Assembly: GCA_963835725.1 (NCBI GenBank)
Contig: CAWIGM010000003.1
Coordinates: forward strand, 116,487-180,486
DNA: 64,000 nucleotides
DNA from: an uncultured Acidobacteriaceae bacterium
GTDB lineage: Bacteria > Acidobacteriota > Terriglobia > Terriglobales > Acidobacteriaceae
Direction: 5' to 3'
Shown here: piece after piece, positions 4,302-37,899 of the stretch
How positions within the stretch are numbered: the first letter of the stretch is position 1
Layout: each line of letters starts with the position of its first letter
The notes under the pieces: model-generated
Seen by the model: the letters and a program-made list of their open reading frames with translations, nothing else
The model's database searches: none
What the model was told of the DNA's origin: nothing
Position numbers and translations under genes: made by a program

Positions 4302-5963
4302 TCACTTCGAATCGGCAACTTTCGGCCTGTACACGGTGCAACTGGCTTGGGCCGGTGCTGACACGGTAATCAGTTCGGTGAACTGGTCGCGATGCTGATT
4401 GATCGCAGCCCATACCGGGTCTCCCGTGCATGCGACAGCGAAATCTGCGTGATGCGCCGGATCGAGCAGCGCAATCTCCCAGTCGGGGTGTTCGGCCTCC
4501 GAGATGACGTGCCGCAGAGGAATGCCCGCCAGTCGCAGCGCTCCGGCATGCTCTGCCTCGTACATCAGCAACGTCGCGGACGGAGGCAGTTGCACCAGAA
4601 CACCGGCCAGCCCCTGCTCCATCGAATTTCGATCGCGCGAGTTGACCTGGGCCTCCCGTAGCGTGAGCGGAGACTCGGCGTACGCGGAGATATAGCTGGC
4701 AGCGACAATCGCCGCTACAAGCACAATGGTCGCTGTTCGGACCTTGGCGCTTGCGCTTTGCACCAATCCCGTCGCCGCGAGTGCCGGGAAAACCGCGAAC
4801 ACCGGCAGCAATTCCAGTCCGTAGCGTACGTTGTAGTACGAGAACGGATACCACGCAGGGATGTAGATCGGCACATTGCCATAGGCAATCGAGAGCGAGT
4901 AGAAGGTTAGCGGCAGCCACAGCAACAGCAGAAATCCGTACCGGCGAAACCGCCACACGGCGATGGCAGTGCCGAGTAACGCCAGTACCAGCAAGAAGTG
5001 ACCCCAGAAGGCGCTACCCATGTTGAGCTGCGCAGACTTAAGAAAATACAGTCCGGCAGTGAACGGATGATCCTGCCCCGGATAAGGCGGCGCTCCCTTC
5101 GCGGTGGTGCGCATGGCTATGGCCTTCGCCGAGTACGGCCCATTGATGAAGTCGAGGGCATTCCCCGAAACCGCCCACGTGTAAACCAGCCAATAGACCG
5201 GCACCAACCCGTTAAGGAACAACACTTCCACGAACGACTTCGCCAGCGTGCGGCGCTGACGGGCATCCTGCATGCGACGATACAAAACCAAGAAGAGCCA
5301 TGTCAGCACCGGAATGAAGATCGCCGCCGAGAACCAGCCGTCGTAACGAGTGAGCGCTCCGCCATAAAGCATGATTCCGCAATACTCGAGTGAGCGCTTT
5401 GGCGTGAGCTGCGTTCCCTGCCCCCCACCATCCGGATGTGGCGGATACGTTGCGCGGAGGAACTCGTCGAGGTAAACCAGCGACCAGATAAAGAACGCGA
5501 GGAATATCGGCTCGTTCATCGCCGTGGTCTGCATGTAGAGCAGGTTAGGATTGAGGGAGTAAATCAGGGCCGCAACATAGCCAGCGAGGTGACCGGCCCG
5601 CGCTCGCACCAGGCGATAGATGCCCAGCGTACCAAGTACATAGGCCACCATGCCGGGGATGGCACCGGCAATCCCGCTCTGCCACAGCGTGTTGACCCAC
5701 ACGAAGGGCAGCATGGCGATGTGTTGCAGCGGAAGCCACACGGTGCCGAGCTGACCGTAGGACTGTATGGGATGACGATTGTCGACGACCCGGCGAGCGA
5801 TGTTCAAATGAGCGACTGCATCGCCGTACAGAAGGAGTTGCTGCTTGGCGTAGTAGTACAGCAGCGCACTGATCGAGATCACCGCCAGCAGCAGGGTGAA
5901 GCGCGCTTCGGAGCGCTGCTGCGTATAACGAATATCGAGAGCAGCACGATCAGCACGCTTCAC
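4302..5963 (-). CDS. Polytopic membrane protein, putative GT-C fold glycosyltransferase (PMT_2/ArnT-like)
   Basis: 553-aa ORF with many predicted TM helices in the N-terminal ~430 aa and a soluble C-terminal domain. Architecture resembles GT39/GT83. No unambiguous catalytic motif was identified by eye. Confidence 0.45.
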   Translation of the reverse strand: MKRADRAALDIRYTQQRSEARFTLLLAVISISALLYYYAKQQLLLYGDAVAHLNIARRVVDNRHPIQSYGQLGTVWLPLQHIAMLPFVWVNTLWQSGIAGAIPGMVAYVLGTLGIYRLVRARAGHLAGYVAALIYSLNPNLLYMQTTAMNEPIFLAFFIWSLVYLDEFLRATYPPHPDGGGQGTQLTPKRSLEYCGIMLYGGALTRYDGWFSAAIFIPVLTWLFLVLYRRMQDARQRRTLAKSFVEVLFLNGLVPVYWLVYTWAVSGNALDFINGPYSAKAIAMRTTAKGAPPYPGQDHPFTAGLYFLKSAQLNMGSAFWGHFLLVLALLGTAIAVWRFRRYGFLLLLWLPLTFYSLSIAYGNVPIYIPAWYPFSYYNVRYGLELLPVFAVFPALAATGLVQSASAKVRTATIVLVAAIVAASYISAYAESPLTLREAQVNSRDRNSMEQGLAGVLVQLPPSATLLMYEAEHAGALRLAGIPLRHVISEAEHPDWEIALLDPAHHADFAVACTGDPVWAAINQHRDQFTELITVSAPAQASCTVYRPKVADSK

Positions 5964-7893: not shown

Positions 7894-9465
7894 TTATCGC
7901 AGCAGCGCCGCCATTCCCTGCGCATTCTGGGTCAGGCCCAGCGACCAGTTCACCGCGTTGATGAAGAAGTTCGGGAACAATCCGATCCCAACCGTTCCGG
8001 CCGCTGTGATCGTCAACGCTAATGTCATCGCCGGACGCAAGCGGACAGGGTCGGCTTCGACCGGTTGACGCATCAGCATCGCATTAGCAATGCGCATGTA
8101 GTAGTACAGGCCGATGACGGCGTACAACACTGCGACTGCCGCCAGGGTGTAGTGCCCAGTCTGAATCAGGCTGAGGAAGATGAAGTACTTGCCCCAGAAG
8201 CCAGCCAGCGGCGGAATGCCCGCCAGCGACAACAGGAAAAGCAGCATCAGCATTGCTTCTGTCGGTGCCTTGAAGAAGAGGCCGGCAATGTCGTCGATCT
8301 CATCCCCAATAATGTTGCGGCGACGTAGCGAGGTGATCACGGCGAACGCGCCCAGGTTCATGAAGGTGTAGACCAGCAGGTACAGAAGGATCGCCATGAT
8401 GCCGGTCGAATTGTTGGTACCGTCACTGGCGACCAGACCGAGCAGCATGTAGCCTACGTGCGCGATTGATGAGTACGCCAGCAGCCGCTTCAGGTTGGTC
8501 TGTGTCATGGCCGCGAGATTGCCGCCGGTCATGGTCGCGATGGAGACAAACACCAGCAGCGGCACATACATCGACCGCAACGGGTACAGAGCGAAGAGGA
8601 AGATGCGGAGCAACATTGCCCATCCCGCAGCCTTTACGGCAACGGACATGAAGCCGGTAACGCTAGTGGGCGCGCCTTCGTAGGCGTCGGGTGCCCACTG
8701 ATGGAACGGGACGGCTGCGATCTTAAAGAGCAGCCCTGTCGTCGTCGTCAGCAACGCGAAAATCACGATCGGATCGTTGGGGCGGGTCGCCAAAACCTGC
8801 TGTAAGCCTTCGGCGATTTTCCCCAGGTTGGTGCTGCCTGTCAGACCGTAAAACAAGGACAATCCGTAAGCGAAGATACCGGACGAGAACGCGCCCAGCA
8901 GCAGATATTTCAGGGCAGCTTCATTGGAGCGTTTGTCGCGACGGAGAAACCCGACGAGCACGTACGTCGAGATGGCCATAAGTTCAAGGCCAATGAACAG
9001 CAGCACGATATCGAAGCCGGATGCCATGCACATCATGCCGATGACCGCAAACAGCATCAGCGCATAAAACTCGCCGTGATTTTCCTGCTCGATTTCCAGG
9101 TACCGGATTGAGATGAGAACCGCAATGGCGGCACCGGCGAGAAATAAGTAAGAGAAATAGATGGCAAACGGATCGATAACCAGCGTTCCCATGAAGCCAG
9201 TGCCGGCGAAGGCGAGATGCTGCGACTGCGCTACGTGATAAGCCCATTGGAGCTTGCCCACCGCAGCGGCGGAGAATGCAATGCCAGCCAGCGCAATGAA
9301 GGCGTTCGCGCGCTTCCATTGTTTGGGCAGGAACAGATCGATCAGCAGGATGCCCAGCGCGAACAGCGTCAGCAGAAGCATTGGCAGCGCGAGCAGGTAA
9401 TCCGTGGCCGAAAAGAATTGTGTGAGCGGGGTGGTCACAAGATCCTCAGTTGGTAATGGCCGCAA
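7894..9465 (-). CDS. nuoN: NADH-quinone oxidoreductase subunit N
   Basis: 523-aa polytopic ORF with the ND2/NuoN motif FHQWAPDAYEGAPTSVTGFMS. Overlaps the nuoM stop by 20 nt. Confidence 0.9.
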   Translation of the reverse strand: MRPLPTEDLVTTPLTQFFSATDYLLALPMLLLTLFALGILLIDLFLPKQWKRANAFIALAGIAFSAAAVGKLQWAYHVAQSQHLAFAGTGFMGTLVIDPFAIYFSYLFLAGAAIAVLISIRYLEIEQENHGEFYALMLFAVIGMMCMASGFDIVLLFIGLELMAISTYVLVGFLRRDKRSNEAALKYLLLGAFSSGIFAYGLSLFYGLTGSTNLGKIAEGLQQVLATRPNDPIVIFALLTTTTGLLFKIAAVPFHQWAPDAYEGAPTSVTGFMSVAVKAAGWAMLLRIFLFALYPLRSMYVPLLVFVSIATMTGGNLAAMTQTNLKRLLAYSSIAHVGYMLLGLVASDGTNNSTGIMAILLYLLVYTFMNLGAFAVITSLRRRNIIGDEIDDIAGLFFKAPTEAMLMLLFLLSLAGIPPLAGFWGKYFIFLSLIQTGHYTLAAVAVLYAVIGLYYYMRIANAMLMRQPVEADPVRLRPAMTLALTITAAGTVGIGLFPNFFINAVNWSLGLTQNAQGMAALLR

Positions 9466-11200
9466 CGATGGTTGTCTGACTCATCGCGGCAAACATTTTC
9501 GAGTTGTCATCCTGAGCAGCGACGACTTTGTTCTGGTCGTCATTGCCGAATGATCTGCGGTCTGTCGTATTCGAAGGAGCTGTGTTTGGGCTCTCTACCG
9601 CAGGCTGAACAGCAGGGCTGAACCCATGTTCCATTGATGGCACATTGGCCGGTTGCGTAGCTAACACCGGCTTGTTCGGGTTCAGGCCCGGATAATCGGG
9701 CCGAACCGTCGCTACCAGGTTGTTCACCGGGGTGGAGAGAATCTGGAAGAACGGCTTGGGATACAGGCCGATCCAGAAAGCGATCAGGACCAGCGGAACG
9801 AACGTCGCCAGTTCGCGTCCGGAGAGATCGAGCAGCTTTTCGTTCTTGGGATTCTCGACCTTGCCAAAGAACACGCGCTGATAGAGCCACAGCAAATACG
9901 CCGCGGCCAGGATCACGCCCGGCACCGCCCACGCGGCCCAGATTTTGTTCTCCATGAATGTACCTTGGAGAATCGTGAACTCGCCGACGAAGCCGTTCAG
10001 CAGCGGCAGGCCCATCGACGACATAAACATGATCAGGGTAATGGTCGCGTACACCGGCATGACGTTCGAGATGCCGCCGTATTCCGAGATCTCGCGCGTG
10101 TGGCGCCGTTCGTACAGGATGCCGACGATCAAGAACAGTGCGCCAGTGGAGATTCCGTGGTTGATCTGCTGCAGCACCGAACCGCTCAGCCCCAACGGGC
10201 TGAGAGCGAAGATCCCCAGGGTGCAGAAGCCAAGATGGCTGACCGACGAGTAGGCCACCAGCTTTTTCATGTCCTTCTGTATCAGCGAGACCAGCGCGCC
10301 ATAAATGATGCCGATCAGCGACAGCGTGATCATCAACTGGCGTACCCACGGTGTCATCGCGACTGCCGGGAAGAATGGCAGCGAGAAGCGAATCATGCCG
10401 TAAGTTCCCATCTTCAGCAGAACGCCGGCCAGGATGACCGAGCCCGCAGTGGGCGCCTCGACGTGCGCGTCGGGCAGCCAGGTGTGGAACGGGAACATCG
10501 GCACCTTGATCGCGAAGCCGAGAAAGAAGGCGAAGAACAACCAGATCGCCGCGTGGCCGCCGATCTTCGGCGCCGTCGCGTAAAGGTCGGGCAAGTAGAA
10601 GGTGTAAACGCCGGTCAGCGTGTGGTGATGGAAGTAAAGGAACAGGATGCCCAGCAGCATCAGCACCGAGCCAAACAGGGTGTACAGGAAGAACTTGATC
10701 GCCGCATAGAGCTTGCGCGGTCCGCCCCAGATGCCGATCAGCAGATACATCGGCACCAGCATGGCCTCCCAGAAAACAAAGAAGAGGAACATGTCGTTGG
10801 CCATGAAGACGCCAAGCATGCCGGTCTGCAGCACCAGGAACCAGATGTAGTATTCCTTCACCCGCTCCTGGATGGCGTTCCACGACGACAGGATCGAGAT
10901 GGCGCCGAGCAGGGTGGTCAGCATGATCAGCAGGAATGAAATGCCGTCGATGCCGAGGACGTAGCCGGAGCCGATGGTCGGGATCCAGTTGTTGGGCGAG
11001 CCTTCGACAAATTGAAAGCCGGCGCGCTCCTTCAGTGCCCAGAACCAGGGGATCAATGGCAATGAAACCGCGAAGCCGAGGAAGGCGAAAACGTTAGCGA
11101 TCCAGCGGATCGCGTCCTTGTTCTCCTTCGGCACCAGCAATAGGAGAAGTGCTCCCACCAGCGGCGTGAATAAAACGATCGAAAGAATGTGGTTATACAT
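9446..11200 (-). CDS. nuoM: NADH-quinone oxidoreductase subunit M, with ~90-aa hydrophilic C-terminal extension
   Basis: 584-aa ORF with the ND4/NuoM motif HTWLPDAHVEAPTAGSVILAGVLLKMGTYG. The tail from about PDYPGLNPNK onward is non-membrane and low complexity. Confidence 0.9.
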   Translation of the reverse strand: MYNHILSIVLFTPLVGALLLLLVPKENKDAIRWIANVFAFLGFAVSLPLIPWFWALKERAGFQFVEGSPNNWIPTIGSGYVLGIDGISFLLIMLTTLLGAISILSSWNAIQERVKEYYIWFLVLQTGMLGVFMANDMFLFFVFWEAMLVPMYLLIGIWGGPRKLYAAIKFFLYTLFGSVLMLLGILFLYFHHHTLTGVYTFYLPDLYATAPKIGGHAAIWLFFAFFLGFAIKVPMFPFHTWLPDAHVEAPTAGSVILAGVLLKMGTYGMIRFSLPFFPAVAMTPWVRQLMITLSLIGIIYGALVSLIQKDMKKLVAYSSVSHLGFCTLGIFALSPLGLSGSVLQQINHGISTGALFLIVGILYERRHTREISEYGGISNVMPVYATITLIMFMSSMGLPLLNGFVGEFTILQGTFMENKIWAAWAVPGVILAAAYLLWLYQRVFFGKVENPKNEKLLDLSGRELATFVPLVLIAFWIGLYPKPFFQILSTPVNNLVATVRPDYPGLNPNKPVLATQPANVPSMEHGFSPAVQPAVESPNTAPSNTTDRRSFGNDDQNKVVAAQDDNSKMFAAMSQTTIVAAITN

Positions 11201-11212
11201 TATTGAAATCCA

Positions 11213-11247
11213 GCAATTAGCAATTAGCCGTTAGCAACTAGCTAAAT
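11213..11247. repeat. Heptamer tandem repeat (GCNNTTA x5) immediately upstream of the nuoM start
   Basis: Plus strand reads gcaatta gcaatta gccgtta gcaacta gctaaat. Confidence 0.85.
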
Positions 11248-11412
11248 CAAAATCGGGTGTCATCCTGAGCGCAGGCGCGCTTTTCGCGCCGCAAGCGTAC
11301 CCCGGGCTTCCGCCCGGGCTAATCACTTCCGCCCTTGGGGCTCAAGACCCAGTCTCACTCTCAAAGAACGTTCGGTCACATCGGACCGCACTGACAACCG
11401 ACAACTGTTCCT

Positions 11413-13542
11413 TCACCACTTCACGACGTAATAGAAAACGAAACCAACCAAACCCGCCACCATGACTAGCGCATACCACTGCACCAGGCCCCACTGCACC
11501 AGGCGCACCGGATACGACGCCAACCGCGTCACAACGGCCACACCATTGACGAAGAGGCCGTCGATAATCCACTTGTCCCACAGGTTCGACACGGTTCCGG
11601 CCATACGCGTGATCCAGCCTGCGCCGTTGACCGTACCGTCAATCACGTCGGCATCGAACTTCCACAAGCCTTCGCCGAGACCCATCACGCCTAGTCGCAC
11701 GTCGCCAACTTTCTTGCGGCCGGTGAATACCCAGTCGTAGATTTCGTCGACGTACCACTTGTGGAACAGCGTCGTGTAGAACGCAGGAGCGGCTTCCTGG
11801 ATCGGCTCCTTGTAGCCCTTGTCGGCCTTCTTGTACGCCCGCTGGGCGAGCCACCATCCCAGGATGGCCGCGGCGATGGAGGCTGACATCAGCACATACT
11901 CCGTGGGATTGGTGTGCTCTACCTGCTTCTCTCCGGCGGCCACTTGCGCGGCGTCGCCTTCGTGTTCAAGCACAACCGCTTCCTTCGCGAACACCGGCTC
12001 TAGGAACTTGCCAAAACGATCCGATCCGCCGAGGCTGTGAGGCATGCCAAGCAGCCCCGCGCCGATCGAGCAGATCGCCAGGATCACCAGCGGCACCGTC
12101 ATGGTCTTGGGCGATTCGTGAATGTGGTGCTCGACTTCATGACTCATACGCGGCTTGCCAAAGAACGTCAGATAAATAAGCCGGAACATGTAGAACGATG
12201 TCAGCAGCGCGGTGAAGAATCCGATGTACCACAGGTAGCGAAACGCGCCGCCTTCGCGCGACCAGGTCTCCCAAAGAATGGCGTCCTTGGAGAAGAACCC
12301 GGCAAAGCCCGGAATGCCGGAGATCGCCAGCGTCGCCACCAACATGGTGCCGAAGGTGGTCTTGATCTTCCCGCGCAGATTGCCCATGAACTGCATCTCC
12401 TGCTCGCCGCTCATGGAGTGGATCACTGATCCGGCTCCGAGGAAGAGCAGCGCCTTGAAGAACGCGTGCGTGAAGACGTGGAAGACACCAGCGGCAAAGG
12501 CGCCAACACCGAGCGCCAGGAACATGTAGCCGAGTTGCGAAACCGTCGAATACGCCAGGACGCGCTTAATGTCGTTCTGCACCAGGGCGATGGAGGCCGC
12601 AAAGATGGCAGTCAGCGCGCCGACGATTGCAACGGTCTTCATCGCCGTGGGCGCGAGTACAAACAGCGCATTCGAGCGCGCGACCATGTAGACGCCGGCG
12701 GTAACCATCGTCGCTGCGTGGATCAGGGCCGAGACAGGGGTCGGACCTTCCATCGCATCGGGCAGCCAGACGTACAGAGGAAATTGTGCGGACTTGCCGC
12801 AAGCGCCGACGAACAGGCAAAGACAGGCAAATGTAATCACGGGATCGCCGATGGCGAACTGCCCGCTGCGGGCCAGATGATTGATGGCCGTGAACTGCAC
12901 CGAACCGAAGTACCATGCGATACTCAGCAAGCCGAGAAGGAATCCGGCGTCGCCGACGCGATTCGTGATGAAAGCTTTATTGGCGGCGGTCGAAGCCGAG
13001 TGCCGCTGGAAGTAAAAACCGATCAGCAGGTACGAGCACAGGCCTACACCCTCCCAGCCGACAAACATCAGGGCATAGTTGTTGCCCAGGATCAGCGTCA
13101 GCATGGAGAACATGAATAAGTTCAGGTAGCCGAAGAAGCGGTAGTAGCCGCCTTCGTGCGCCATGTAGCCCATCGAGTAAATGTGGATGAGCATGCCCAC
13201 GCCGGTGACAAAGAGCAGCCAAATCGAGGACAGCGGGTCGAGCAGGAAACCGGCATCGGCATTGAACTGCGCCGCACCCCCGTGCATGGGATAAGCCAGT
13301 GACGTGCTGCCGGTGCCCAGCCAGGTGAACAGGATTGTTTCGAAGGGTTTGCCGGGGCTAGCGGCTGAGTATCCGGTGTACTGCCAGACGGCGAGGCAGG
13401 CCCACACGAACGCCAACACAACCATACCGACGCAGACGCCGTTCACCGCCGACTTCGAAAGCTTGCGTCCGAAGAAGAACATGCAAGCCGCCCCGAAGAC
13501 CGGGAACAGGGGAATCAACCAAATGTGCTCTAAGAAAAACAT
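11413..13542 (-). CDS. nuoL: NADH-quinone oxidoreductase subunit L
   Basis: 709-aa ORF with the ND5/NuoL motif LYVWLPDAMEGPTPVSALIHAATMVTAGVYM and a long C-terminal amphipathic arm region. Confidence 0.9.
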   Translation of the reverse strand: MFFLEHIWLIPLFPVFGAACMFFFGRKLSKSAVNGVCVGMVVLAFVWACLAVWQYTGYSAASPGKPFETILFTWLGTGSTSLAYPMHGGAAQFNADAGFLLDPLSSIWLLFVTGVGMLIHIYSMGYMAHEGGYYRFFGYLNLFMFSMLTLILGNNYALMFVGWEGVGLCSYLLIGFYFQRHSASTAANKAFITNRVGDAGFLLGLLSIAWYFGSVQFTAINHLARSGQFAIGDPVITFACLCLFVGACGKSAQFPLYVWLPDAMEGPTPVSALIHAATMVTAGVYMVARSNALFVLAPTAMKTVAIVGALTAIFAASIALVQNDIKRVLAYSTVSQLGYMFLALGVGAFAAGVFHVFTHAFFKALLFLGAGSVIHSMSGEQEMQFMGNLRGKIKTTFGTMLVATLAISGIPGFAGFFSKDAILWETWSREGGAFRYLWYIGFFTALLTSFYMFRLIYLTFFGKPRMSHEVEHHIHESPKTMTVPLVILAICSIGAGLLGMPHSLGGSDRFGKFLEPVFAKEAVVLEHEGDAAQVAAGEKQVEHTNPTEYVLMSASIAAAILGWWLAQRAYKKADKGYKEPIQEAAPAFYTTLFHKWYVDEIYDWVFTGRKKVGDVRLGVMGLGEGLWKFDADVIDGTVNGAGWITRMAGTVSNLWDKWIIDGLFVNGVAVVTRLASYPVRLVQWGLVQWYALVMVAGLVGFVFYYVVKW

Positions 13543-13543
13543 A

Positions 13544-13613
13544 GTAATTAGCCGTTAGCAATTAGCACTTAGCCAAACTGACCACTGGCAACTGGCCACT
13601 GGCTACTGCTTCT
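13544..13613. repeat. Ten consecutive in-phase heptamers filling the nuoK-nuoL spacer
   Basis: gtaatta gccgtta gcaatta gcactta gccaaac tgaccac tggcaac tggccac tggctac tgcttct (70 nt). Confidence 0.9.
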
Positions 13614-13919
13614 TCACCACTTCAACAAATCCACTTCGTCCACATTTACCGTCTCCTTGTTGCGGAAGAAGGCAATGATGATGCCCAGCCCGACGGCGGC
13701 TTCGGCCGCAGCATCGGTGATAACGAAGATGGAAAAAACTTGTCCGTGCAATCCGTACAGCCTCGAGAACGCAACCAGGTTCAGGTTCACGGCGTTCAGG
13801 ATCAGCTCGATCGACATCAGGATGATGATCACGTTCCGGCGGGTCAGCACGCCGATGGTGCCAATGATGAACAGCGCCGCCGCAACAACCAGGTAATGCA
13901 ATGTTGTGATCTCAGTCAT
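13614..13919 (-). CDS. nuoK: NADH-quinone oxidoreductase subunit K
   Basis: 101-aa, 3-TM ORF with [17 protein letters not shown] and [21 protein letters not shown], typical of NuoK/ND4L. Confidence 0.9.
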
Positions 13920-13929
13920 AAGAAACTCG

Positions 13930-14007
13930 GCAATTAGCCGTTAGCAATTAGCAAAACCTTTGCCGGTTATAACCGGCCACTGACCACTAGCCACTGGCCA
14001 CTGCTTC
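13930..14007. repeat. Heptamer repeats plus a 16-nt palindrome in the nuoJ-nuoK spacer
   Basis: gcaatta gccgtta gcaatta gcaaaac; then palindrome GCCGGTTATAACCGGC (13962-13977); then cggccac tgaccac tagccac tggccac tgcttc. Confidence 0.85.
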
Positions 14008-14526
14008 TCAAATCCTCTTCTTCGCCATGACTACAGCGCCTACGATGGCCACCAGCAGCAGCAGCGATGCAACCTCGAACGGCAGCATGTAATTGCCATA
14101 GAGCGCCAGTCCGATCTGCTGCGTGTTGTCGCCTTCGAGCCCGCGGAAGCTCTGCAGAAACGCGGCCGGAAATCCGCCGCGCCCGCTGCGCAGCACGAAT
14201 GCCAGCAGGCCGCCCAACGCTAGCGCGGCGATTGTTCCGACCGCCCACTGCTTGTTGAACTGATATTCGCGAATGTTCTGTTCGAGGTTGATCAGCATGA
14301 TTACGAACAAGAACAGCACCATGATTCCACCGGCGTAGAGGACGATCTGGACGCCAGCGACAAATGGGGCGTACAGCATGAGGTAAAAGCCGGCCAGCGA
14401 AAGCAGGGTCACAATGAGCGACAGCGCCGCGTGTACAGGATTGCGCCGGGTGATCACCGCGATCGCCGAAACGATGGCCATCACCGCGAGAAAGTAGAAG
14501 AAAAATGTTGTGGCAACTGGTGTCAT
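14008..14526 (-). CDS. nuoJ: NADH-quinone oxidoreductase subunit J
   Basis: 172-aa, 5-TM ORF in the conserved position between nuoI and nuoK. NuoJ/ND6-like FVAGVQIVLYAGGIMVLFLFVIML. Confidence 0.85.
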   Translation of the reverse strand: MTPVATTFFFYFLAVMAIVSAIAVITRRNPVHAALSLIVTLLSLAGFYLMLYAPFVAGVQIVLYAGGIMVLFLFVIMLINLEQNIREYQFNKQWAVGTIAALALGGLLAFVLRSGRGGFPAAFLQSFRGLEGDNTQQIGLALYGNYMLPFEVASLLLLVAIVGAVVMAKKRI

Positions 14527-14533
14527 AAAGTCA

Positions 14534-14641
14534 GCAATTAGCCCTTAGCAATTAGCAAAATCAAAACCGTAAGTTCGAATTCAGAAACCCTCGTCATAGA
14601 CTGCAAAACTAACTGGCCACTGGTCACTGACCACTGGCCAC
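14534..14641. repeat. Heptamer repeats at both ends of the nuoI-nuoJ spacer
   Basis: gcaatta gccctta gcaatta gcaaaat at 14534-14561, and tggccac tggtcac tgaccac tggccac at 14614-14641. The last unit overlaps the nuoI stop codon. Confidence 0.85.
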
Positions 14642-15102
14642 TACTTCTCGTACCTCACCGGCTTCGGACCCTCTTCCAGCGCCTGCTGGTCCAGCACCAT
14701 GCCGTCGCGGGTGTAGAGAGCCATCTCGAAGTCAGGCGTCAACTCCAGCGCGTCCGTCGAGCACGCCTCGGCGCACAGGCCGCAGAACAGGCAGCGGCTC
14801 AGGTCGTAGGTCCAGGTCACCGGGAATTTCCGCTTGCTCACCGGATCGCGGTCGCCCTTGATGACGATCAACTGCTCCGGGCAGGCTAGCGCGCACAGGT
14901 TGCAGACGATGCACTTGGAGTGACCTGATCCCTCATCCATGCGCAAACGCGGCTGTCCGCGAAAGCGTTCGGCAACTTTTGGCCGCTCCAGCGGATATTG
15001 CTCGGTGACAGCCTCGCTCGGGGCCTGGTAATTGAATGTGACCTTCAGACCCTTCACCAGATCAACTAGCAGGATCTTGCGAAGCAGCGGCGGCAGACTC
15101 AT
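14641..15102 (-). CDS. nuoI: NADH-quinone oxidoreductase subunit I (2x[4Fe-4S])
   Basis: Two ferredoxin motifs, [12 protein letters not shown] and [11 protein letters not shown]. The ATG at 15102 forms an ATGA overlap with the nuoH stop. The longer ORF-track N-terminus (to 15498) lies inside nuoH and is rejected. Confidence 0.9.
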
Positions 15103-16380
15103 CGCAGCACCCCCAGAATCGCCGATGACATCTCGGGCAGCAGTCCTGCGATCGCGGTGGCAATCAATACCCCGAGTCCAGTCGGCAGCAGAACCTTCCA
15201 GCCGACTTTCATCAGCTGGTCGAAGCGGTAGCGCGGGAACGTACCGCGATACCAGATGTACAGGTACATGAAGAACGCGACTTTCGCGACGAACCAGAAG
15301 ATGTCCTGCACGCGCTCGCGAACGCCGGGGGCAAAGAGCACCAGACCGACGACGCCAAGGAGCAATCCAAAGACTGCCAGGCCGACCGTCTGGATCTTCA
15401 TTTGCGGAATTTTCGGCATACGCGCCGCGCCGAGCAGGCACAGGCCAGCAAGGCCCATCAGCGTCAGGCCTGGGACAAACGAGAACGCCACGTCCCACAC
15501 TGTGCCACCCAGCCAGTTCGGGAAGGGCCGCATCCAGCCACCCAACCAGAGCGTGACCGCGATCGCCGAAACCGCTAGCATGGCCGCATATTCGGCCAGG
15601 AAAAAGAGCGACCAGCGGAAGCCGCTGTATTCGGTGTGAAAGCCGGCGACTAATTCGGACTCGGCTTCGGGCAAGTCAAAGGGAGCGCGATTGGTCTCGG
15701 CCACCATAGCAATGGCAAAAACCATGAAGGCGATAAAGCCCAAGCGGGAAGAATTTGAAGATGAACCAGGTATGCTGCGCCGCCTGTGCCTCGACAATGC
15801 CGATCATGCTCAGCGTGCCCGTGCCCGTCTGCAAACTGGTCATCATGACGGCGCAGACAATCGCCAGACCCATGGCAATTTCGTACGACACCATCTGCGC
15901 ACTCGAGCGCAAGGAGCCCATCAGCGGGTAATGTGAGTTCGATGACCAGCCCGCCATGATGATGCCCAACACACCCAGCGACGAAACGCCGAGCATGAAG
16001 AGAATGCCGATGTTCATATCGGTCACGGCGTGGGTGCGTCCGAAGGGGACGACCAGGAACGTCGTGAAGGCCGTCATCGTGACGACGACCGGCGCGCTCC
16101 AGAACACCAACTTGTCGGCGTCGTGCGGAATGATGTCTTCCTTGATAAGCAGCTTCAGTGCGTCGGCGAAGGGCTGCAGCAATCCGTGCGGGCCGACGCG
16201 CATGGGACCGAGGCGGATCTGCATGTGCGCGAGAATCTTGCGCTCCAGCCAGTTCATCGCAATCACCGCCAGCGAAATGCCGATGGTGATGATCAGGATG
16301 TAGACGGTTGCCCAGAACATGCTGCCGGCTTCGCCAGGGGTGCCGGTTGAATGCAGGTATTTTGTGATCGCGTCAATCAT
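15099..16380 (-). CDS. nuoH: NADH-quinone oxidoreductase subunit H, with the frame broken by an apparent 1-nt insertion at the CCC run 15739-15741
   Basis: ORF 15676..16392 gives the NuoH N-terminal two thirds ([37 protein letters not shown]). ORF 15099..15797 gives the rest ([26 protein letters not shown]). The two halves join as ...FFPLG|FIAFMVF if one G of the GGG run (minus strand) is removed. Confidence 0.85.
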
Positions 16381-16594
16381 GGCTTGGCACACACGGGTTC
16401 GTTTTGAAAGGGCGCCTCTTCGTTTTGAAAGGGCACGGCTTCAGCCGTGCCGCCGACGTCACCTTTGAATGGAGCGTCGCGAGAAAAAGCTGCGCCCATC
16501 GCGCGTTGTTGAAAAGAGCACGACGCTGCCAGGTAGAAGCAGTGACGAAGTACGTCTGTCCGTTATTGGTCGCGTGCTCGCGGGTCGGCTTCAT
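16373..16594 (-). pseudogene. Remnant of a REP-associated tyrosine transposase (RAYT, IS200-like). Only ~43 N-terminal codons are recognisable.
   Basis: MKPTREHATNNGQTYFVTASTWQRRALFNNARWAQLFLATL parallels the N-terminus of the RAYT at 21081..21576 (TKTYFVTASAYTHQNLFQRTETADLLLATI). The HUH and Tyr motifs are absent. The rest of the ORF is a read-through of REP hairpins. Confidence 0.6.
16423..16451. repeat. REP hairpin (left flank of the RAYT remnant)
   Basis: TTTGAAAGG-GCACGGCTTCAGCCGTGCC, preceded by a tandem duplicate of cgttttgaaaggg. Confidence 0.8.
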
Positions 16595-16673: not shown

Positions 16674-17870
16674 TCACCGGTCCACCTCCCCCAGCACGAT
16701 GTCGAGCGTGCCGATCACCGCGACGACATCGGCGATCAGCAGGCCCCGCACCATCTTGTCGAGGGCTTGCAGATTGACGTAGGACGGCGGACGCACGCGC
16801 AACCTGTAGGGCTGCGTCGAGCCGTCGCTAACGATGAAATATCCCAGCTCGCCTTTGGGAGCTTCGATCGAGTGATAAACCTCGCCGGCGGGCGGCTTGA
16901 GGATTTTGGGCACCTTGGCCATGATCGGACCAGCGGGAAGGCTATCCACCGCCTGGCGAATGATGCGTACCGATTGCCGCATCTCCGCGATGCGCACCAG
17001 GTACCGATCGTAGGTGTCGCCGTTCACGCCGGTGGGAATCTCGAAGTCAAAGTTCTTGTAGGCTTCGTACGGTTGTGCTTTGCGCAGGTCCCACTTCACT
17101 CCGCTGGCCCGGAGAACTGGCCCGGTGACACCTAGCGCGATGCAATCTTCCGCCTTCAAAATACCGACGCCCTTTGTGCGGCGAACCCAGATACGGTTCG
17201 TCGTCAACAGCTCTTCGTATTCGTCGAGCTTGGGGAGGAAGGCGTCGCAAAAGTCTTGGCACTCTTTCTCGAACCCGTCATACGTCTCGTAAATACACCC
17301 GCCGATGCGGAATGCGTGCGTAGTCAGCCGCGCGCCGCAGTACTTCTCAAAAATCTCAAGGATGGCTTCGCGGTCGCGGAAACAATAGAACAGTGGTGTA
17401 AGCGCGCCGATGTCGAGCGCATGGGTGCCCAGCCAAACCTGATGGCTGGCGATGCGGCACAATTCCGTGAGGATGACGCGAATGTACTGCGCCCGTGCCG
17501 GAACCTCGGCATTGATCAGCTTCTCAACCGTCTCGCAGTAGCCCAGCCCATTCGAGACCGCCGCGACATAGTCCATGCGGTCGACATAGGGATTGAACAT
17601 CGCGTAGGTTCGGTTCTCGGCGATCTTCTCCACACCGCGATGCAGATAGCCAATCACGCATTCGGTGCCCAGAACCTTCTCGCCATCCAGCTTCAAGATG
17701 ACGCGCAGCACGCCGTGAGTCGAAGGGTGCTGAGGTCCCATATTGAGGACCATTTCCGTGGTGTCGAGGAAGGTCTGCTCTTTGGTATCGAGGTCGAGAT
17801 AGTCCACCACGCCGGGGCCGCTCTCACCGGGTTGCGCGTGGCGATAATCGGATTCGATCAGGTTCTTCAT
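16674..17870 (-). CDS. nuoD: NADH-quinone oxidoreductase subunit D
   Basis: [26 protein letters not shown] and the C-terminal DIVLGEVDR are NuoD/49-kDa motifs. The ATG at 17870 forms an ATGA overlap with the nuoC stop. Confidence 0.9.
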
Positions 17871-18679
17871 TGCGCGCTCTCGATGCCAATGTTGTTCTTC
17901 ACCCACTCGTTGTCCTGCTGCAGGATGGCGTAGTCCTTGCGCAGCGGGTGGCCCTTCCAGTCCTCGGGCATCAGGATGCGTTTGAGTTCCGGGTGCTCGT
18001 CGAACGTGATGCCGAACATGTCGAAGACCTCGCGCTCAAGCCAATTGGCTGTCGGCCAGATACTGACGGCGCTGCGCAGGTGATCGCCGTCCTTGATCTG
18101 CGTTTTAATCCGAATGCGTTCGTTCTTATGGAAGGAGTACAGGACGTAGACGATGTCGAACTGTGCTTCGCGCTTGGGATAGTGAACGGCAGTGACGTCG
18201 ACGCAGTAGTCGAACTGCTCGTCGTCGCGCATACGCAGCAGAATCTCGTAGGCAAGCGTGCTATCGACGACGAGGTAGTTCTGCCGGGCGTAGGTGCTGG
18301 CCTCGCGGAGGCCGGAGCCGTATTGCGCCTCCAGGCTGCTGACCAGGTCGCAATTCCACGGCTCCGGCTTGGGAGCTTCGGGTTTCGGTGCCGGTTTTGC
18401 AGGAGCGGCCGCAGGTTTTGCCGCGGCAGCTGCGGCCGGAGCGGCAGGTTTCGCGGGCGCTGCAGCGGACTTCACGGCAGCCGCTTCAACGGGCTTGGAG
18501 GCAGCCGCGGCCGGTTTGTCGCCGGTCAAAGGAGGTGCGACTGCCTGAACTGGTTGTGCTTCTGCTGCCGGTGCGGGCTTCGTCTCGGGAGCAGCCACCG
18601 CTGACGACGCTGGCGCTGAAGCTGCCGGGGCGGAGTCTTCGAGCGAGACCGGATTTGGCTCTTTCGTTTCCTCTGACAT
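17867..18679 (-). CDS. nuoC: NADH-quinone oxidoreductase subunit C with a ~115-aa Ala/Pro/Lys-rich N-terminal extension
   Basis: The C-terminal 150 aa hold the NuoC/30-kDa core ([51 protein letters not shown]). The start is uncertain, either ATG 18679 or GTG 18766. Confidence 0.85.
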
Positions 18680-18969
18680 GTCTATTTCTTCACTGGGAAC
18701 TGCTACCCCGTCTGGAAGTTTCAGTTGTACAGCGAAGGGGCTGCGGGAAGCTTGTACGCGAGTCACTTCACGATGTGATGGCGGTCACATTAGGGCTTGG
18801 AAGTGCAACATTCGGGGGAGAAGAGAAATGCCTGCGGCCTAATTTGCCGGCGGCGAGCTTGTCTTCCGCGTACCGGCGCTCATTAACGTTTTCCCAGAAT
18901 TCCGGCCCATAAAGTGCCCGATCCAATCTGCCGATGAACCTTTACGAGTAATTCCTTCAGGAGGAGTTC

Positions 18970-20781
18970 GTGACCGACCCGCGCAAGCAGCTTGCCATTA
19001 CCCGCAGAGATTTCGTGAAGACGGTAGGGATTGGAATGAGTGCCTTACAGGGGCTGGGCGTCGGCGCCGGTGTGCTCGAACTCGCCAGCTGCGGCAGTCC
19101 AGCCAATCCGCCGGCTCCGCAGATCGTTTGGTGGCCAATCGCAACCCAGGTGTATACGACGGCACAACAGCAGGTTTGTCCGGTAGCCCTCAGCCCTTCT
19201 GTCCGTCAGCTGCAACCGGGCGATGTCGCGCTTTACGCGCAATACAATTACAGCGGGTGGACACTGGGCGGCCCACTGCAGCACATCGTGCGCAACGATC
19301 TTGCCCCAGGTTATACGGGAGCGCCCAATGCGGCGCGACTGCTGTACTACTTCTCGATTTCCGACATTCATATCGCCGACAAGGAGTCGCCGGCGCAGCC
19401 GATCTACATCGGCTGGAAGGCGCCGTATGGTCCCGCGTCGAGTGGTCAGTCGTCAGCCTATTCGCCAATCCTGCTTTCGACGCCGCAGGTGCTCGACGCT
19501 GCCATCCAGACCATCAACGCCCTGCACAAGGCTATGCCCTTTGATTTCGGCATGTCGCTGGGAGACGCCTGCAACAACACGCAATACAACGAGCTGCGCT
19601 GGTTCCTCGACACCATAGATGGGAAGGTAATCACGCCCAGTTCGGGCGGGCATCTGGGGGCGTCAACCATCGATTATCAGCGCCCGTTCCAGGCCGGCGG
19701 ACTCGATCCATCCCTGCTCTGGTATCAGGTGATGGGCAACCACGATCAGTTCTGGATGGGCTGTGCCTTCGAGAATGAGAAGACGCAGAGCGCACACGTC
19801 GGCGACACCATTATCGACATCGGCAACAATGGCGACCCGCCGCCGGTATCGATCGATCAGACTGGCGCGTACATGGGCGTGATCAACGGCTTGACCCCTT
19901 ACGGCGATATGTGGGGCGGCGGCCCCGAGGCTGACTTTAAGACGCCGCCGAAAGTTGTGGCCGATTCAAACCGGCACTCGCTGGCGACCACCGAGTCCAC
20001 CACGGTCAACTGGATGACCGAGTTCTTCAATACCACAACCAAGCCGGAGGGGCACGGCTTCAGTCAGGACAACCTGAAGAGCGGCATGGCCTGTTACAGC
20101 TTTGTGCCAAAGTCCGACATTCCGATCAGGATCATCGTTCTGGACGACACGGTGAAAGGTCCGGGACAGGCCAATTATGCTGCAGGCGCGCTCGACGACG
20201 CTCGGTATCAGTGGCTAGTGGATGAGTTGCAGGCAGGACAGGCAGCCAACCAGTTGATGATCATTGCGGCCCACGTGCCCATCCTGCCGCAGAACAGCCT
20301 TACCGACACGACACCATTTCCCATGTGGCCGGGCCCGGAATACACCGACGACTACGTGCTCAACACCCTGCACCAGTATCCCAATCTCATCCTGTGGATG
20401 GCGGGACATCGTCATGTAAATGTCGTAACCCCGCAACCGGACCGCAGTGGCGATCCAACGTTGGCGTTCTGGGAGGTTGAAACTTGTTCGTTGCGCGACC
20501 ATCCGCAGCAGTTCCGAACGTTCGACATTCGCCGTAACAGCGATAACACGGTGTCGATCATCATCACCAATGTCGACCCTGCGGTCGTGTCTAATTCGCC
20601 GGCATACAAGTCGCGTGGTTACGCTCTGGGGGCGTTTCGGATTTTCGGTGCGACCCCGGAGATCATCGCCGATACGACCTCGCACTCCTACAACGCCGAG
20701 TTGGTGGTGCAGCTGACGCCGGTCATGCAGGCGGTAATTTCACAGGCGGGAACCGGGCTGTCGGCCTTCTCGACGCGGTGA
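18970..20781 (+). CDS. Tat-signal metallophosphoesterase (calcineurin-like; resembles the TIGR03767/TIGR03768 type)
   Basis: GGAGGAG SD, then GTG. Twin-arginine motif TRRDFVK. Phosphoesterase motifs ISDIHIAD, GDACNN, MGNHDQFW, AAHVP and GHRHVN. Confidence 0.75.
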   Translation: MTDPRKQLAITRRDFVKTVGIGMSALQGLGVGAGVLELASCGSPANPPAPQIVWWPIATQVYTTAQQQVCPVALSPSVRQLQPGDVALYAQYNYSGWTLGGPLQHIVRNDLAPGYTGAPNAARLLYYFSISDIHIADKESPAQPIYIGWKAPYGPASSGQSSAYSPILLSTPQVLDAAIQTINALHKAMPFDFGMSLGDACNNTQYNELRWFLDTIDGKVITPSSGGHLGASTIDYQRPFQAGGLDPSLLWYQVMGNHDQFWMGCAFENEKTQSAHVGDTIIDIGNNGDPPPVSIDQTGAYMGVINGLTPYGDMWGGGPEADFKTPPKVVADSNRHSLATTESTTVNWMTEFFNTTTKPEGHGFSQDNLKSGMACYSFVPKSDIPIRIIVLDDTVKGPGQANYAAGALDDARYQWLVDELQAGQAANQLMIIAAHVPILPQNSLTDTTPFPMWPGPEYTDDYVLNTLHQYPNLILWMAGHRHVNVVTPQPDRSGDPTLAFWEVETCSLRDHPQQFRTFDIRRNSDNTVSIIITNVDPAVVSNSPAYKSRGYALGAFRIFGATPEIIADTTSHSYNAELVVQLTPVMQAVISQAGTGLSAFSTR

Positions 20782-20982
20782 GAGGACCGTGGGGATCAAT
20801 AAGGAGTTGGCATCGCGAACGAGGAAAGGGATCGGCTGTTCGTACGCAGGGCAGGCCAGGCGTCACGCAGTCGTGATCTTCCTGCCCCGATATGAATCTT
20901 CAATTTCGCAGGGAACTTGCGTCGAGTGGCGAAAAGCAGATCCCTCACTCGCTCGTGATGACAATATCGGGGACTCCAGGAC

Positions 20983-21096
20983 AAGCTCGGATAGTGCGGC
21001 ACTTCGTTGCCTTGTCGGACAAAGCTCGGATGGCGGCGCTTCAGCGCTTTGTCGGGGAAACGCTTGGGTAGTGCGGCGCTTCAGCGCCGCGTTAAG
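20983..21096. repeat. Array of three ~37-bp REP units (left flank of the RAYT)
   Basis: Units end in hairpins gcggcacttcgttgcc, ggcggcgcttcagcgc and gcggcgcttcagcgccgc. The last 26 nt (21066-21091) are a perfect inverted copy of 21593-21618. Confidence 0.85.
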
Positions 21097-21576
21097 GTTC
21101 CATCCTCATATTGAGGCTTTAGCCTCGCGGGTACCTCGTCCAGACGTACTAAGGTTTTGGCCGAGGAATGCCGGTAATCCTCGGCGGCCGCGACCAGATG
21201 CCGGCGCACTGGATTCTCGTGGATATACGCCCTGATTCGTTCGTATTCTGCATCGTCACGAACCCGATGCTCGTAGTAGCTGGGCTGCCACACCGCTTTC
21301 AGCTTCAAAGGTCGCGTGAGAAAATCCGCCCTTGATCAACTGCATGGCGCGGCCGATTGAGTGATCGTCGTCGATCGTCAACAACAGATGCATGTGATTT
21401 GGCATGATCACGAATTCGTGCAAATCAAATTCACCCTTGTCACGATTGCGGACGATGGTTGCCAGCAACAGATCGGCGGTTTCGGTTCGTTGGAACAGGT
21501 TCTGATGCGTATACGCCGATGCGGTGACGAAATAGGTTTTGGTCATAAGGTACTTGGGGGCTAAAGCCCTGGTCAT
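21081..21576 (-). pseudogene. REP-associated tyrosine transposase (RAYT / IS200-like, Y1 HUH), frameshifted near 21295-21320
   Basis: ORF 21256..21576 carries HUH (IMPNHMHLLL). ORF 21081..21308, in the next frame, carries the catalytic-Tyr region VWQPSYYEHRVRDDAEYERIRAYIHENPV. Likely start is MTKTYFV at 21546. The 3' end reads into a REP hairpin. Confidence 0.8.
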
Positions 21577-21592
21577 GGGAGGGTCATCTTGA

Positions 21593-21755
21593 CGCGGCGC
21601 TGAAGCGCCGCACTACCCGAACAAAACAATCATGGCGCGGGCCTGAAAGTCCGGCACAACCCGAACAAACCGATCCTGGGGCAGACCTGAAGCCCCGCAC
21701 TACCAGAGCAAATACAATCTTTGCGCATGCCTGAAGTGCCACACGAGGCGAACGT
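21593..21755. repeat. Array of four ~41-43-bp REP units (right flank of the RAYT), inverted relative to the left array
   Basis: Hairpins gcggcgctgaagcgccgc, ggcctgaaagtccggc, gcagacctgaagccccgc and gcatgcctgaagtgccac are each followed by ac(t/a)acc(c/a)ga-like tails. Confidence 0.85.
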
Positions 21756-21763
21756 AGTTGGTT

Positions 21764-21798
21764 TAGCTGACGGCTGACGGCCGATAGCTGACAGCTTC
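21764..21798. repeat. Heptamer tandem repeat directly 3' of the nuoA stop
   Basis: tagctga cggctga cggccga tagctga cagcttc, ending 2 nt before the nuoA stop codon (21801-21803). Confidence 0.85.
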
Positions 21799-21800
21799 TC

Positions 21801-22157
21801 CTACACCCACTCCAGTGCGCCTTTTTTCCAGATCCAGATGTATCCCACGATGAGGATGCCGAGAAAGATCATCATCTCCAGCAAACCGAACAGCCCGAGC
21901 AGCTTGAACTGCACCGCCCAGGGGAACAGGAAGATGGTCTCGACGTCGAACACAACAAAGAGAATGGCCACGATGTAGAAGCGCACTGTGTAACGCCCGC
22001 GCGCGTTGTCGAAGGGCGTGATGCCGCACTCGTAGGGCATCAGCTTCGTGGTGGAGGGATTCTTCGGACGTAGCAGGGTGAAGATCGCCAGGGTTCCGGC
22101 GGCAACGAGAAAAGCAACAAAAGCAAAGATGAAAATCGGTACGTAATTCTGCGGCAT
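21801..22157 (-). CDS. nuoA: NADH-quinone oxidoreductase subunit A
   Basis: 118-aa, 3-TM ORF with PYECGI and FDVETIFLFPWA, which are NuoA/ND3 motifs. Confidence 0.85.
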   Translation of the reverse strand: MPQNYVPIFIFAFVAFLVAAGTLAIFTLLRPKNPSTTKLMPYECGITPFDNARGRYTVRFYIVAILFVVFDVETIFLFPWAVQFKLLGLFGLLEMMIFLGILIVGYIWIWKKGALEWV

Positions 22158-37670: not shown

Positions 37671-37899
37671 ATGCCACCTCCCTGGACCTGATTCGCAAGG
37701 ATTACGCTCTCCGGCCCTCCGAAGCGCGCACACACGATTTAAGGGTGAACGGGCATCAGAATACACAGTTTCTGACAAGGTGAAAAGAATTTACTTACAC
37801 GTCGCTGCCACATTGCAGGACTTCACCTGTGCGATGCTCTTATCTTTTTCTCGGCGGAAGCGCAGAACGAGATCAATTTGTCGGCGGAAGAATGGACTC

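Follow-up and report, generated by a model that had tools for sequence, protein, structure and literature searches.

The 64,000-nucleotide stretch of DNA analysed here (the window; contig CAWIGM010000003.1 of an uncultured Acidobacteriaceae bacterium) carries a complex I (nuo) operon on its minus strand. We focused on the intercistronic spacer between nuoK and nuoL. The nuoK stop codon TGA (13614-13616) and the nuoL ATG (13540-13542), both on the minus strand, enclose 71 nt composed almost entirely of tandem 7-nt units. On the mRNA strand the spacer reads as a purine-only prefix of 5 nt (AGAAG), a stop-proximal array of CAGU units (the A arm), a start-proximal array of GCUAA units (the B arm) and the triplet ACU, followed by the nuoL AUG (Table 1). 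The CAGT units start at offsets 6, 13, 20, 27 and 34 of the spacer and the GCTAA units at 41, 48, 55 and 62, indicating that both families run in a single continuous 7-nt phase. Self-matches at lag 7 numbered 40/64, while 20,000 shuffles reached at most 30, and both arrays were recovered by Tandem Repeats Finder (TRF) with period 7. The heptamer periodicity of this spacer is real and far from chance. A first-pass annotation of this DNA had placed the same stop and start codons and read the spacer as ten in-phase heptamers; the coordinates, the heptamer character and the shared phase all stood, but only nine units are clear, and the first (AGAAGCA) and last (UAAUUAC) of that reading are degenerate.

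The two arms differ in composition. The A arm is G+C-rich and contains UGGCCA palindromes, by which it folds on itself in the predicted RNA. The B arm is A+U-rich, carries UAA in all three frames as the first-pass annotation had noted, and ends 3 nt short of the nuoL AUG without a Shine-Dalgarno (SD) sequence. The lack of an SD was borne out: no SD-like 4-mer was found at -17 to -4 of nuoL, nor at this place before nuoJ, nuoK or nuoM, whereas 24/47 window genes have one.

The same arms were found by TRF and pattern searches at other junctions of the operon, where they occupy the nuoI-J, nuoJ-K and nuoK-L spacers and mark the two ends of the nuoL-M spacer. An A arm of the GUGGCCA or GUGGUCA type lies at, or within 3-5 nt of, the nuoI, nuoJ and nuoK stop codons, and a variant of the GCNGUCA type follows the nuoA stop. 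A B arm of the GCUAAUU or GCUAACG type lies ahead of the nuoJ, nuoK, nuoL and nuoM ATGs, its last full unit ending 3-21 nt upstream, so that the window arrays facing a start codon number 4/4. The order along transcription, A then B, is identical in all four spacers. The pattern GCTAAnnGCTAA has 9 matches in the 64-kb window, all of them in these nuo spacers (9/9) and on the mRNA strand (9/9), and none of the 21 non-nuo intergenic regions of the window (0/21) contains a period-7 array. The two unit families of the earlier description are therefore both present, but they are the two arms of a recurrent stop-side and start-side module, and at least four such modules exist in this operon, the nuoK-L spacer being one.

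Table 1. Repeat arms and nuo genes in the window (units given as mRNA).
Feature	Position	Strand	Remarks
nuoK-nuoL intercistronic spacer, entire, 71 nt	13543-13613	minus	prefix AGAAG + A arm + B arm + tail ACU
A arm, nuoK-nuoL spacer (stop-proximal)	13574-13608	minus	CAGUAGC CAGUGGC CAGUUGC CAGUGGU CAGUUUG
B arm, nuoK-nuoL spacer (start-proximal)	13546-13573	minus	GCUAAGU GCUAAUU GCUAACG GCUAAUU
A arm, nuoJ-nuoK spacer	13975-14004	minus	GCAGUGGCCAGUGGCUAGUGGUCAGUGGCC; begins 3 nt past nuoJ stop
B arm, nuoJ-nuoK spacer	13930-13954	minus	GCUAAUUGCUAACGGCUAAUUGC; then tail CGAGUUUCUU + nuoK AUG
A arm, nuoI-nuoJ spacer	14612-14642	minus	AGUGGCCAGUGGUCAGUGACCAGUGGCCAGU; first unit overlaps nuoI UAG stop
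B arm, nuoI-nuoJ spacer	14533-14558	minus	GCUAAUUGCUAAGGGCUAAUUGCUGA; then CUUU + nuoJ AUG
Degenerate A-type arm after nuoL stop	11389-11407	minus	CAGUUGUCGGUUGUCAGUG
B arm, nuoL-nuoM spacer	11212-11242	minus	GCUAGUUGCUAACGGCUAAUUGCUAAUUGCU; then GGAUUUCAAUA + nuoM AUG
Variant heptamer array after nuoA stop	21765-21800	minus	GCUGUCA GCUAUCG GCCGUCA GCCGUCA GCUAA; directly after nuoA stop (21801-21803)
NuoN	7894-9465	minus	Pfam
NuoM	9446-11200	minus	Pfam
nuoL	11413-13542	minus	Pfam PF00361, PF00662
nuoK	13614-13919	minus	Pfam PF00420
NuoJ	14008-14526	minus	Pfam
NuoI	14641 to about 15105	minus	Pfam

We compared the orthologous spacers of about 90 Terriglobales loci, labelled below with L numbers. 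Eight loci were obtained through exact or near-exact NuoK matches, 80 through a metagenome scan with NuoK and six through NuoL relatives; nuoI-M were mapped by tblastn in the first 88 (8 + 80), and the six NuoL-relative loci were read directly. These orthologous spacers are not independent samples. In NCBI, an identical NuoK sequence carries the annotation Candidatus Korobacteraceae / Terriglobales. From stop codon to ATG, the typical spacer of a relative runs through a purine-rich prefix (AAGGCAG, AAAGCAG, GAGGGCAG and the like), a first heptamer arm on the 5' side, a loop or a stretch of inserted repeats, a second heptamer arm on the 3' side and finally 0-6 nt. The alignment of related nuo spacers that the first-pass annotation had proposed revealed heptamer arms at both boundaries as the usual state, conserved above synonymous sites. 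The unit families vary by lineage (TTAGCnn/GCTAAnn, TCAGCnn/GCTGAnn, TTCGCnn/GCGAAnn, GCAnTTA/TAAnTGC, CAGTACC and CGACnAA), and the two arms of one spacer are often mutual reverse complements. The arms stay at the stop and start boundaries, and the centre may be missing or hold up to about 300 nt of inserts resembling repetitive extragenic palindromic (REP) sequences, miniature inverted-repeat transposable elements (MITEs) or the Acido-Lenti-1 motif. In the 33 spacers of at least 150 nt, arrays covered 17% of the first 45 nt and 17.5% of the last 45 nt, compared with 2.2% of the middle. Period-7 arrays occurred in 33-54% of the nuoJ-M spacers and in 14% of other intergenic regions of array-bearing Acidobacteria. 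Across all intergenic sets tested, no arrays of period 5, 6 or 9 and one of period 8 were found. The nuoK-L spacer exceeds 40 nt in 72/79 loci, and nuoL has an SD at the canonical place in only 6/79.

The arms are better preserved than their surroundings. Within an alignable sub-family, the arms are 84% identical, nuoK third positions 51% (saturated) and the loop 40%, with the arms higher in 11/11 pairs. The nearest available DNA shows 85-91% identity in the nuo genes, and the window B arm before nuoL matches that of L214 at 24/26 positions, compared with 63% identity at nuoL third positions. By these alignments, the arms are conserved well above synonymous sites. The window nuoK-L spacer equals the L214 spacer minus a central block of about 285 nt made of other repeats, with the junction at a TTTGGC found on both sides of the block, which points to one deletion or insertion at this repeat. 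Because L214 has the same arms around this centre, the all-heptamer spacer of the window is a minimal form from which the centre is missing: the earlier statement that the whole spacer consists of in-phase heptamers is true in the window, but describes a derived state. Unit number also differs, the nuoI-J B arm having 4 units in the window and 5 in L209. We infer that replication slippage and deletions between short repeats make the arrays grow, shrink and fuse.

RNA folding was predicted for the same spacers. In the relatives, the median folding z was -3.1 for J-K, -4.3 for K-L and -4.5 for L-M, and z was below -3 in 86/159 unique orthologous spacers. In many lineages the two reverse-complementary arms are predicted to form a single long hairpin across the spacer. 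The hairpin starts a median of 4 nt past the stop codon and ends a median of 4-9 nt ahead of the start codon. As the unit families cannot be aligned to each other, complementarity of the arms was compared within one spacer and across loci; it was higher within the spacer in 114/159 cases. The window has another form: its A arm is predicted to pair with itself and its B arm to remain mostly open. Per heptad, pairing between its two arms would offer only 3 G.U and 2 Watson-Crick pairs beside 2 C.A mismatches, and the arms therefore form no hairpin together. The sense strand of the window spacers is predicted to be 8-13 kcal/mol more stable than the antisense strand. Arms that are not complementary were also found in the nearest relatives of the window (L003, L004 and L214), where the A arm self-folds via UGGCCA palindromes and the B arm is mostly open. 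In the sub-family L152-L208, a conserved hairpin comes first, and between it and the ATG lies a second array (CGACnGA or GCUGArU) that is unpaired, the same layout as in the window. No terminator-like site was found on the mRNA strand of the nuoK-L spacer, which rules out an intrinsic terminator there. Rfam covariance models gave no match at gathering score in the window, and the only sub-threshold match, to Acido-Lenti-1, falls outside the arrays, so the arrays are not a known Rfam RNA.

To place the arrays outside nuo, one genome per GTDB species was scanned for GCTAAnnGCTAAnnGCTAA, which yielded at least 120 loci. Among the matches listed, at least 32 belong to Acidobacteriota (Terriglobia, Blastocatellia, Vicinamibacteria, Holophagae and Thermoanaerobaculia) and at least 18 to cyanobacteria; Bacteroidota, Clostridia, Desulfobacterota, Gemmatimonadota, Planctomycetota and others are also represented among them. 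GCTAA-type arrays extend well beyond Acidobacteria and cyanobacteria. At many listed loci, matches on the plus and minus strands lie about 100 nt from each other and form an inverted pair: a TTAGC array, a loop and a GCTAA array. The polarity of these pairs follows lineage: in about 12 loci of Terriglobia and Blastocatellia the TTAGC arm leads, and in loci of Vicinamibacteria (L082) and Thermoanaerobaculia (L112) the GCTAA arm does. Very dense GCTAA-type arrays were seen in an uncultured member of the Clostridia (L033; 8 matches in 8 kb), and a very long one, of more than 20 GCTAATT units, in an Acidobacteriaceae locus (L111, 6054-6261).

Full-text literature searches found no description of heptamer arrays in Acidobacteria, in agreement with the first-pass annotation, which knew of no acidobacterial equivalent. 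Acidobacteria go unmentioned in PMC2670836, PMC4692102, PMC4679880 and the preprint 10.1101/2022.06.06.494920. The likeness to cyanobacterial short tandemly repeated repetitive (STRR) sequences to which that annotation had pointed holds, and it applies equally to the TAACTGA heptamers (PMC2670836, PMC4679880). The cyanobacterial 7-bp STRR repeats form hairpins between hupS and hupL, and transcript stability or translational coupling has been proposed as their role (PMC2670836). The nuo arrays share with them head-to-tail 7-nt units (TRF period 7, lag-7 40/64 in the window) and a non-coding location inside an operon (the four window nuo spacers and about 90 relative loci). Inverted arrays with hairpin potential are seen in most relatives (z < -3 in 86/159 spacers); in the window itself only the A arm self-pairs, and the A and B arms are not complementary. 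Position is kept between relatives while sequence and length vary, as is also the case for the heptamers of Xanthomonas (GGGAATC) and Nostoc (GGGGAYT), which have the same gene neighbours, variable length and sequence, and some inverted pairs (PMC4692102). The nuo arrays differ from STRR repeats in their host, a member of the Terriglobales (Acidobacteriota) rather than a filamentous cyanobacterium, in the regular layout of a stop-side and a start-side arm at successive junctions of one operon, and in arms measurably better conserved than synonymous sites. Their units (CAGTGGC, GCTAATT, GCTGAGA, GCGAACA, CGACTGA and others) also differ from the canonical STRR1-3 units. The A unit GUGGUCA is one base off the STRR2 unit TTGGTCA.

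TAACTGA heptamers lie in forward orientation just upstream of SD-less starts in Beggiatoaceae, cyanobacteria and Bacteroidetes, with occasional reverse sets after stop codons, and S1, cold-shock proteins (Csp) and CsrA have been suggested as binders (MacGregor 2015, PMC4679880). The nuo B arms are likewise forward direct repeats ending 3-21 nt before the start (4/4 in the window), and the downstream genes mostly lack an SD (none for nuoJ-M; an SD in 6/79 orthologous nuoL). Stop codons in the forward frames, occasional reverse sets after stops, indels in 7-nt steps between strains and occurrence in essential operons are further points in common. In contrast, the nuo units TAATTGC, TAACGGC and TAAGTGC match TAACTGA at only 4-5 of 7 positions, the nuo B arms have a partner arm past the stop codon, the reported taxa do not include Acidobacteria (PMC4679880), and the start-codon preference is not seen in Acidobacteria at large (10:10). 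The G-rich simple sequence repeats (SSRs) of Xanthomonas and Nostoc are also over-represented intergenic heptamers with some inverted pairs, one of them inside an operon (pecE-pecF) (PMC4692102); unlike these G-quadruplex-prone repeats, the nuo units are not G-tracts and have no evident G-quadruplex potential. In Nostoc, heptamer repeats are reported to affect recF and recO expression (10.1101/2022.06.06.494920). REP sequences and their paired form, REPINs, resemble the arrays as extragenic palindromic DNA giving transcript hairpins, often within operons (PMC3116915, PMC3337134), and true REP-like hairpins and Y1_Tnp genes occur in the same nuo spacers. A REP, however, is a fixed palindrome of 20-40 nt that carries a GTAG-type motif, follows one consensus across the genome and is mobilised by REP-associated tyrosine transposases (RAYTs, Y1 type) (PMC3116915, PMC3337134), whereas the nuo arrays consist of 7-nt units in tandem, belong to several families and vary in sequence between sites. 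The arrays are thus ruled out as REPs or REPINs, and true GTAG REPs flank the Y1_Tnp gene. Taken with these likenesses and differences, the nuo spacer arrays are very probably an acidobacterial member of the STRR/TAACTGA-type heptanucleotide repeats.

What the arrays do is a matter of interpretation from sequence. Our preferred reading is that they originate by slippage and are retained at stop/start boundaries through an action on the polycistronic nuo mRNA, combining a hairpin with an SD-independent or termination-coupled start; we regard the case for such an action as evenly balanced. In the window, the first arm would form a short hairpin just 3' of the upstream stop codon, and the second would provide a mostly open, stop-rich, SD-free leader serving as an SD-independent landing or re-initiation site for ribosomes. 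On this reading nuoJ, nuoK, nuoL and nuoM would be translated without an SD, probably coupled to termination on the upstream gene. Where a relative has complementary arms, a ribosome that terminates translation about 4 nt short of the helix could open the base of this helix and so unmask the start codon 4-9 nt beyond it, as in the RNA-unfolding model of translational coupling, which covers gene pairs up to +52 nt apart (rpmI-rplT; PMC12548453).

Several simple functional predictions for the arrays are not borne out, and a number of observations weigh against an action on the mRNA. The window nuoK-L spacer folded with its flanks gave z = -0.59 against dinucleotide shuffles (RNAfold), by which its fold is not special. 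A formal covariation test found 1/21 compensatory pairs within the alignable sub-family. Constraint specific to the RNA strand was not seen either, as the G.U asymmetry of strong hairpins (sense 283 vs 246) was not significant (p = 0.30); the hairpins are Watson-Crick palindromes without a G.U excess, so an origin or constraint at the DNA level is equally compatible. An unstructured leader was rejected because the predicted accessibility of array-preceded start codons is ordinary (0.37-0.52 vs a median of 0.36). Only 26-44% of orthologous spacers have stops in each of the three frames ahead of the start, the nuo spacers contain no promoters or convincing terminators, and structure right after a stop codon is reported to reduce coupling (PMC12548453). 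The nuo spacers are about 3-fold enriched in period-7 arrays yet not unique in having them. Acidobacterial GCTAA arrays outside nuo lie in tandem, convergent and divergent gene pairs at 14:8:8, against a background of 76:30:33, and array 3' ends outside the window, in other Acidobacteria, face starts and stops equally (10:10), which rules out a general preference for intercistronic or start-proximal sites. Intergenic location was discarded as evidence: it is automatic for GCTAA arrays because three or more units give TAA in the forward and TAG in the reverse direction, in three frames each. Some close relatives lack the arrays: L213 has none, with nuoI and nuoJ overlapping and a nuoJ-K spacer of 1 nt, the nuoK-L spacer of L007 is 4 nt long, and the nuoK-L spacers of L209 and L213 contain only REPs. 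The first-pass annotation had named a missing intercistronic bias and absence from close relatives as grounds for abandoning its reading; the former was found outside nuo, which goes part of the way, and the latter in L213 and L007 and, for the nuoK-L spacer, in L209.

The alternative that survives best is that the arrays are neutral or selfish repeat DNA, slippage-prone microsatellites that build up wherever intergenic DNA permits, with the inverted pairs as quasi-palindromes perfected by template switching and the hairpin or open leader as a by-product. We consider this a distinct possibility, though somewhat short of probable. The nuo spacers would be permissive because the nuo genes do not depend on a nearby SD. 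The background proportions of gene-pair types, the equal numbers of start- and stop-facing arrays outside the window, the automatic intergenic location of GCTAA arrays and the lack of strand asymmetry in the palindromes all agree with it. So do the fast turnover, with arrays wholly absent from some close relatives, the differences in unit number, the deletion between TTTGGC repeats, and the gathering of REP hairpins, MITE-like elements, Acido-Lenti-1 motifs and even Y1 transposase genes in the same spacers. Heptamer SSRs are over-represented in many bacteria, and polymerase slippage has been suggested to account for their period and general excess (PMC4692102). Neutral accumulation fits poorly, however, with arm conservation that is position-specific and far above saturated synonymous sites, with the 8-fold concentration of arrays at stop/start boundaries relative to spacer centres, and with the roughly 3-fold enrichment of the nuoJ-M spacers over other intergenic regions. 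Long spacers also persist in 72/79 lineages despite the usual bacterial deletion bias, and the order of A and B relative to transcription is constant in the four window spacers.

A role in mRNA processing or stability would have the stop-side hairpin block 3' exonucleases and the AU-rich arm act as an RNase E/G-type entry site, so that the nuo transcript is segmented. Each window module is indeed predicted to be a hairpin followed by an open AU-rich tract, and of the two roles that have been suggested for STRR hairpins in cyanobacteria, one is transcript stabilisation (PMC2670836). Weak terminator-like hairpins with U-rich tails lie at 14633-14614 (I-J) and 11388-11373 (L-M), but the number of terminator-like sites (9 vs 4.6 +/- 2.2 in shuffles) shows no significant excess. 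Moreover, the AU-rich arm is buried in a long hairpin in many relatives, and differential segment stability would bring no obvious benefit, as complex I subunits are needed in equal amounts. We therefore consider this role improbable. We give slightly less weight still to a putative protein platform, on which a cold-shock-domain protein, ribosomal protein S1 or another factor would read the 7-nt register and regulate hairpin melting or translation. The strict period of 7, with other periods lacking, and the conservation of unit sequences within clades would suit such a platform. CspB binds heptamer repeats with one protein per heptamer, S1 and Csp have been proposed for TAACTGA repeats (PMC4679880), and the Nostoc preprint postulates an unidentified heptamer-binding partner (10.1101/2022.06.06.494920). 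Many arrays, however, are locked in double-stranded stems, and the mix of several unrelated unit families within a genome, even within the same operon, speaks against one sequence-specific binder.

The least probable account, which we think very unlikely, is a split ribosome-binding site in which the purine prefix after the stop is the true SD and the hairpin brings it next to the AUG: purines make up 84% of the prefix positions +1 to +5 past the nuoK stop, SD-like 4-mers occur at +1 to +10 in 24/71 K-L spacers compared with 1/71 at +11 to +20, and the hairpin geometry leaves 4 nt and 4-9 nt unpaired, but SD-like prefixes are present in just 34% of K-L, 21% of J-K and 5% of L-M spacers, the window prefix AGAAG is not an SD, and the window arms do not pair. 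As a general account it is rejected, as it fits only a minority of spacers. Phage T4 genes 25 and 38 are precedents for split ribosome-binding sites.

Knowledge of tandem heptanucleotide repeats in cyanobacteria dates from 1990; their over-representation in many bacteria was noticed later. To our knowledge, no function has been demonstrated for them. The acidobacterial arrays are a real, strongly non-random and apparently undescribed genome feature, of which the regular two-arm boundary layout is a notable trait. A broader form of our preferred reading, which we think unlikely, is that the boundary arrays are selected cis-elements of widespread SD-independent expression of internal cistrons, recruiting or handing over ribosomes, possibly via a protein that reads 7-nt steps. 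The two arms would do so either singly or joined in a hairpin that brings stop and start codon next to each other. If this were true, it would give a function to the STRR-type repeats of Acidobacteria, cyanobacteria, Beggiatoaceae and Bacteroidota. For comparative work the complex I operon of Acidobacteria is unusually clean: dozens of lineages allow the same junctions to be set side by side, the arrays keep fixed places at the boundaries, arm sequence is conserved against saturated synonymous sites and close relatives provide natural 'knock-outs'. This makes the question of whether heptamer repeats are junk or signal testable. For annotation, the results mean that these nuo genes have no SD and have long structured leaders, and that the Rfam 'sRNA' Acido-Lenti-1 is one of the modules populating their spacers.

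Other repeats share these spacers. Outside the window nuoK-L spacer, spacer centres hold REP-like hairpins, Acido-Lenti-1 motifs and a MITE-like element, GGTCCTTCGACTC...CGCTCAGGATGACA. The last recurs immediately 5' of B arms in the form GGTCCTTCGACTC-N-CGCTCAGGATGACA, with GGTTTTG after it; in the window it lies at about 11262-11290 on the minus strand, and it is present in many spacers of L001-L008, L129, L141 and L214. Full palindromic versions, TGTCATCCTGAGCG...CGCTCAGGATGACA, occur in L183, L195 and L200. The element looks like a MITE. Acido-Lenti-1 (RF01687, listed in Rfam as a small RNA, sRNA) has a window match at 11300-11342 on the plus strand with 26.2 bits, below threshold. It exceeds the gathering score in nuo spacers of relatives (L130 at 3044-3093 and 4438-4487, L005 at 4392-4441 and L001 at 3797-3840), and its matches in nuo spacers are always antisense to nuo. 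In these spacers it has the behaviour of a dispersed repeat module, not of an sRNA gene standing by itself.

Directly downstream of nuoA, a Y1 transposase gene of the IS200-like type (PF01797) lies at 21256-21576 on the minus strand. It is flanked by 31-nt inverted REP-like hairpins, GGGTAGTGCGGCGCTTCAGCGCCGC, which carry GTAG and are 97% complementary, at 21066-21096 and 21588-21618; the gene with these hairpins is a RAYT/REP-like arrangement. Beside it, four tandem copies of a unit of about 44 nt occupy 21586-21756. Among the relatives, Y1_Tnp genes were found in the nuoK-L spacer of L008 and in the nuoL-M spacers of L007 and L209-L213.

Further upstream, the window nuo cluster includes NuoH, NuoD and NuoC (Pfam). 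Between nuoA (stop at 21801) and nuoC (17867-18766), no nuoB was found in window positions 18767-21255; the interval contains two plus-strand open reading frames (ORFs) without a Pfam match, at 18970-20781 (603 aa) and 20789-21235, and the nuo cluster is interrupted there. The nuoH gene (PF00146, minus strand, 15099-16392) is split into two overlapping ORFs in different frames, of which 15676-16392 covers profile positions 3-176 and 15099-15797 covers positions 174-297. This is a frameshift, either genuine or from an assembly error; a similar split was seen in the nuoH of L003. TRF also reported tandem repeats of periods 21 and 24 at 16392-16442 and 18458-18508, near or within the nuoH and nuoC regions, and of period 15/30/45 at 36556-36647, inside the ORF at 36081-37778.

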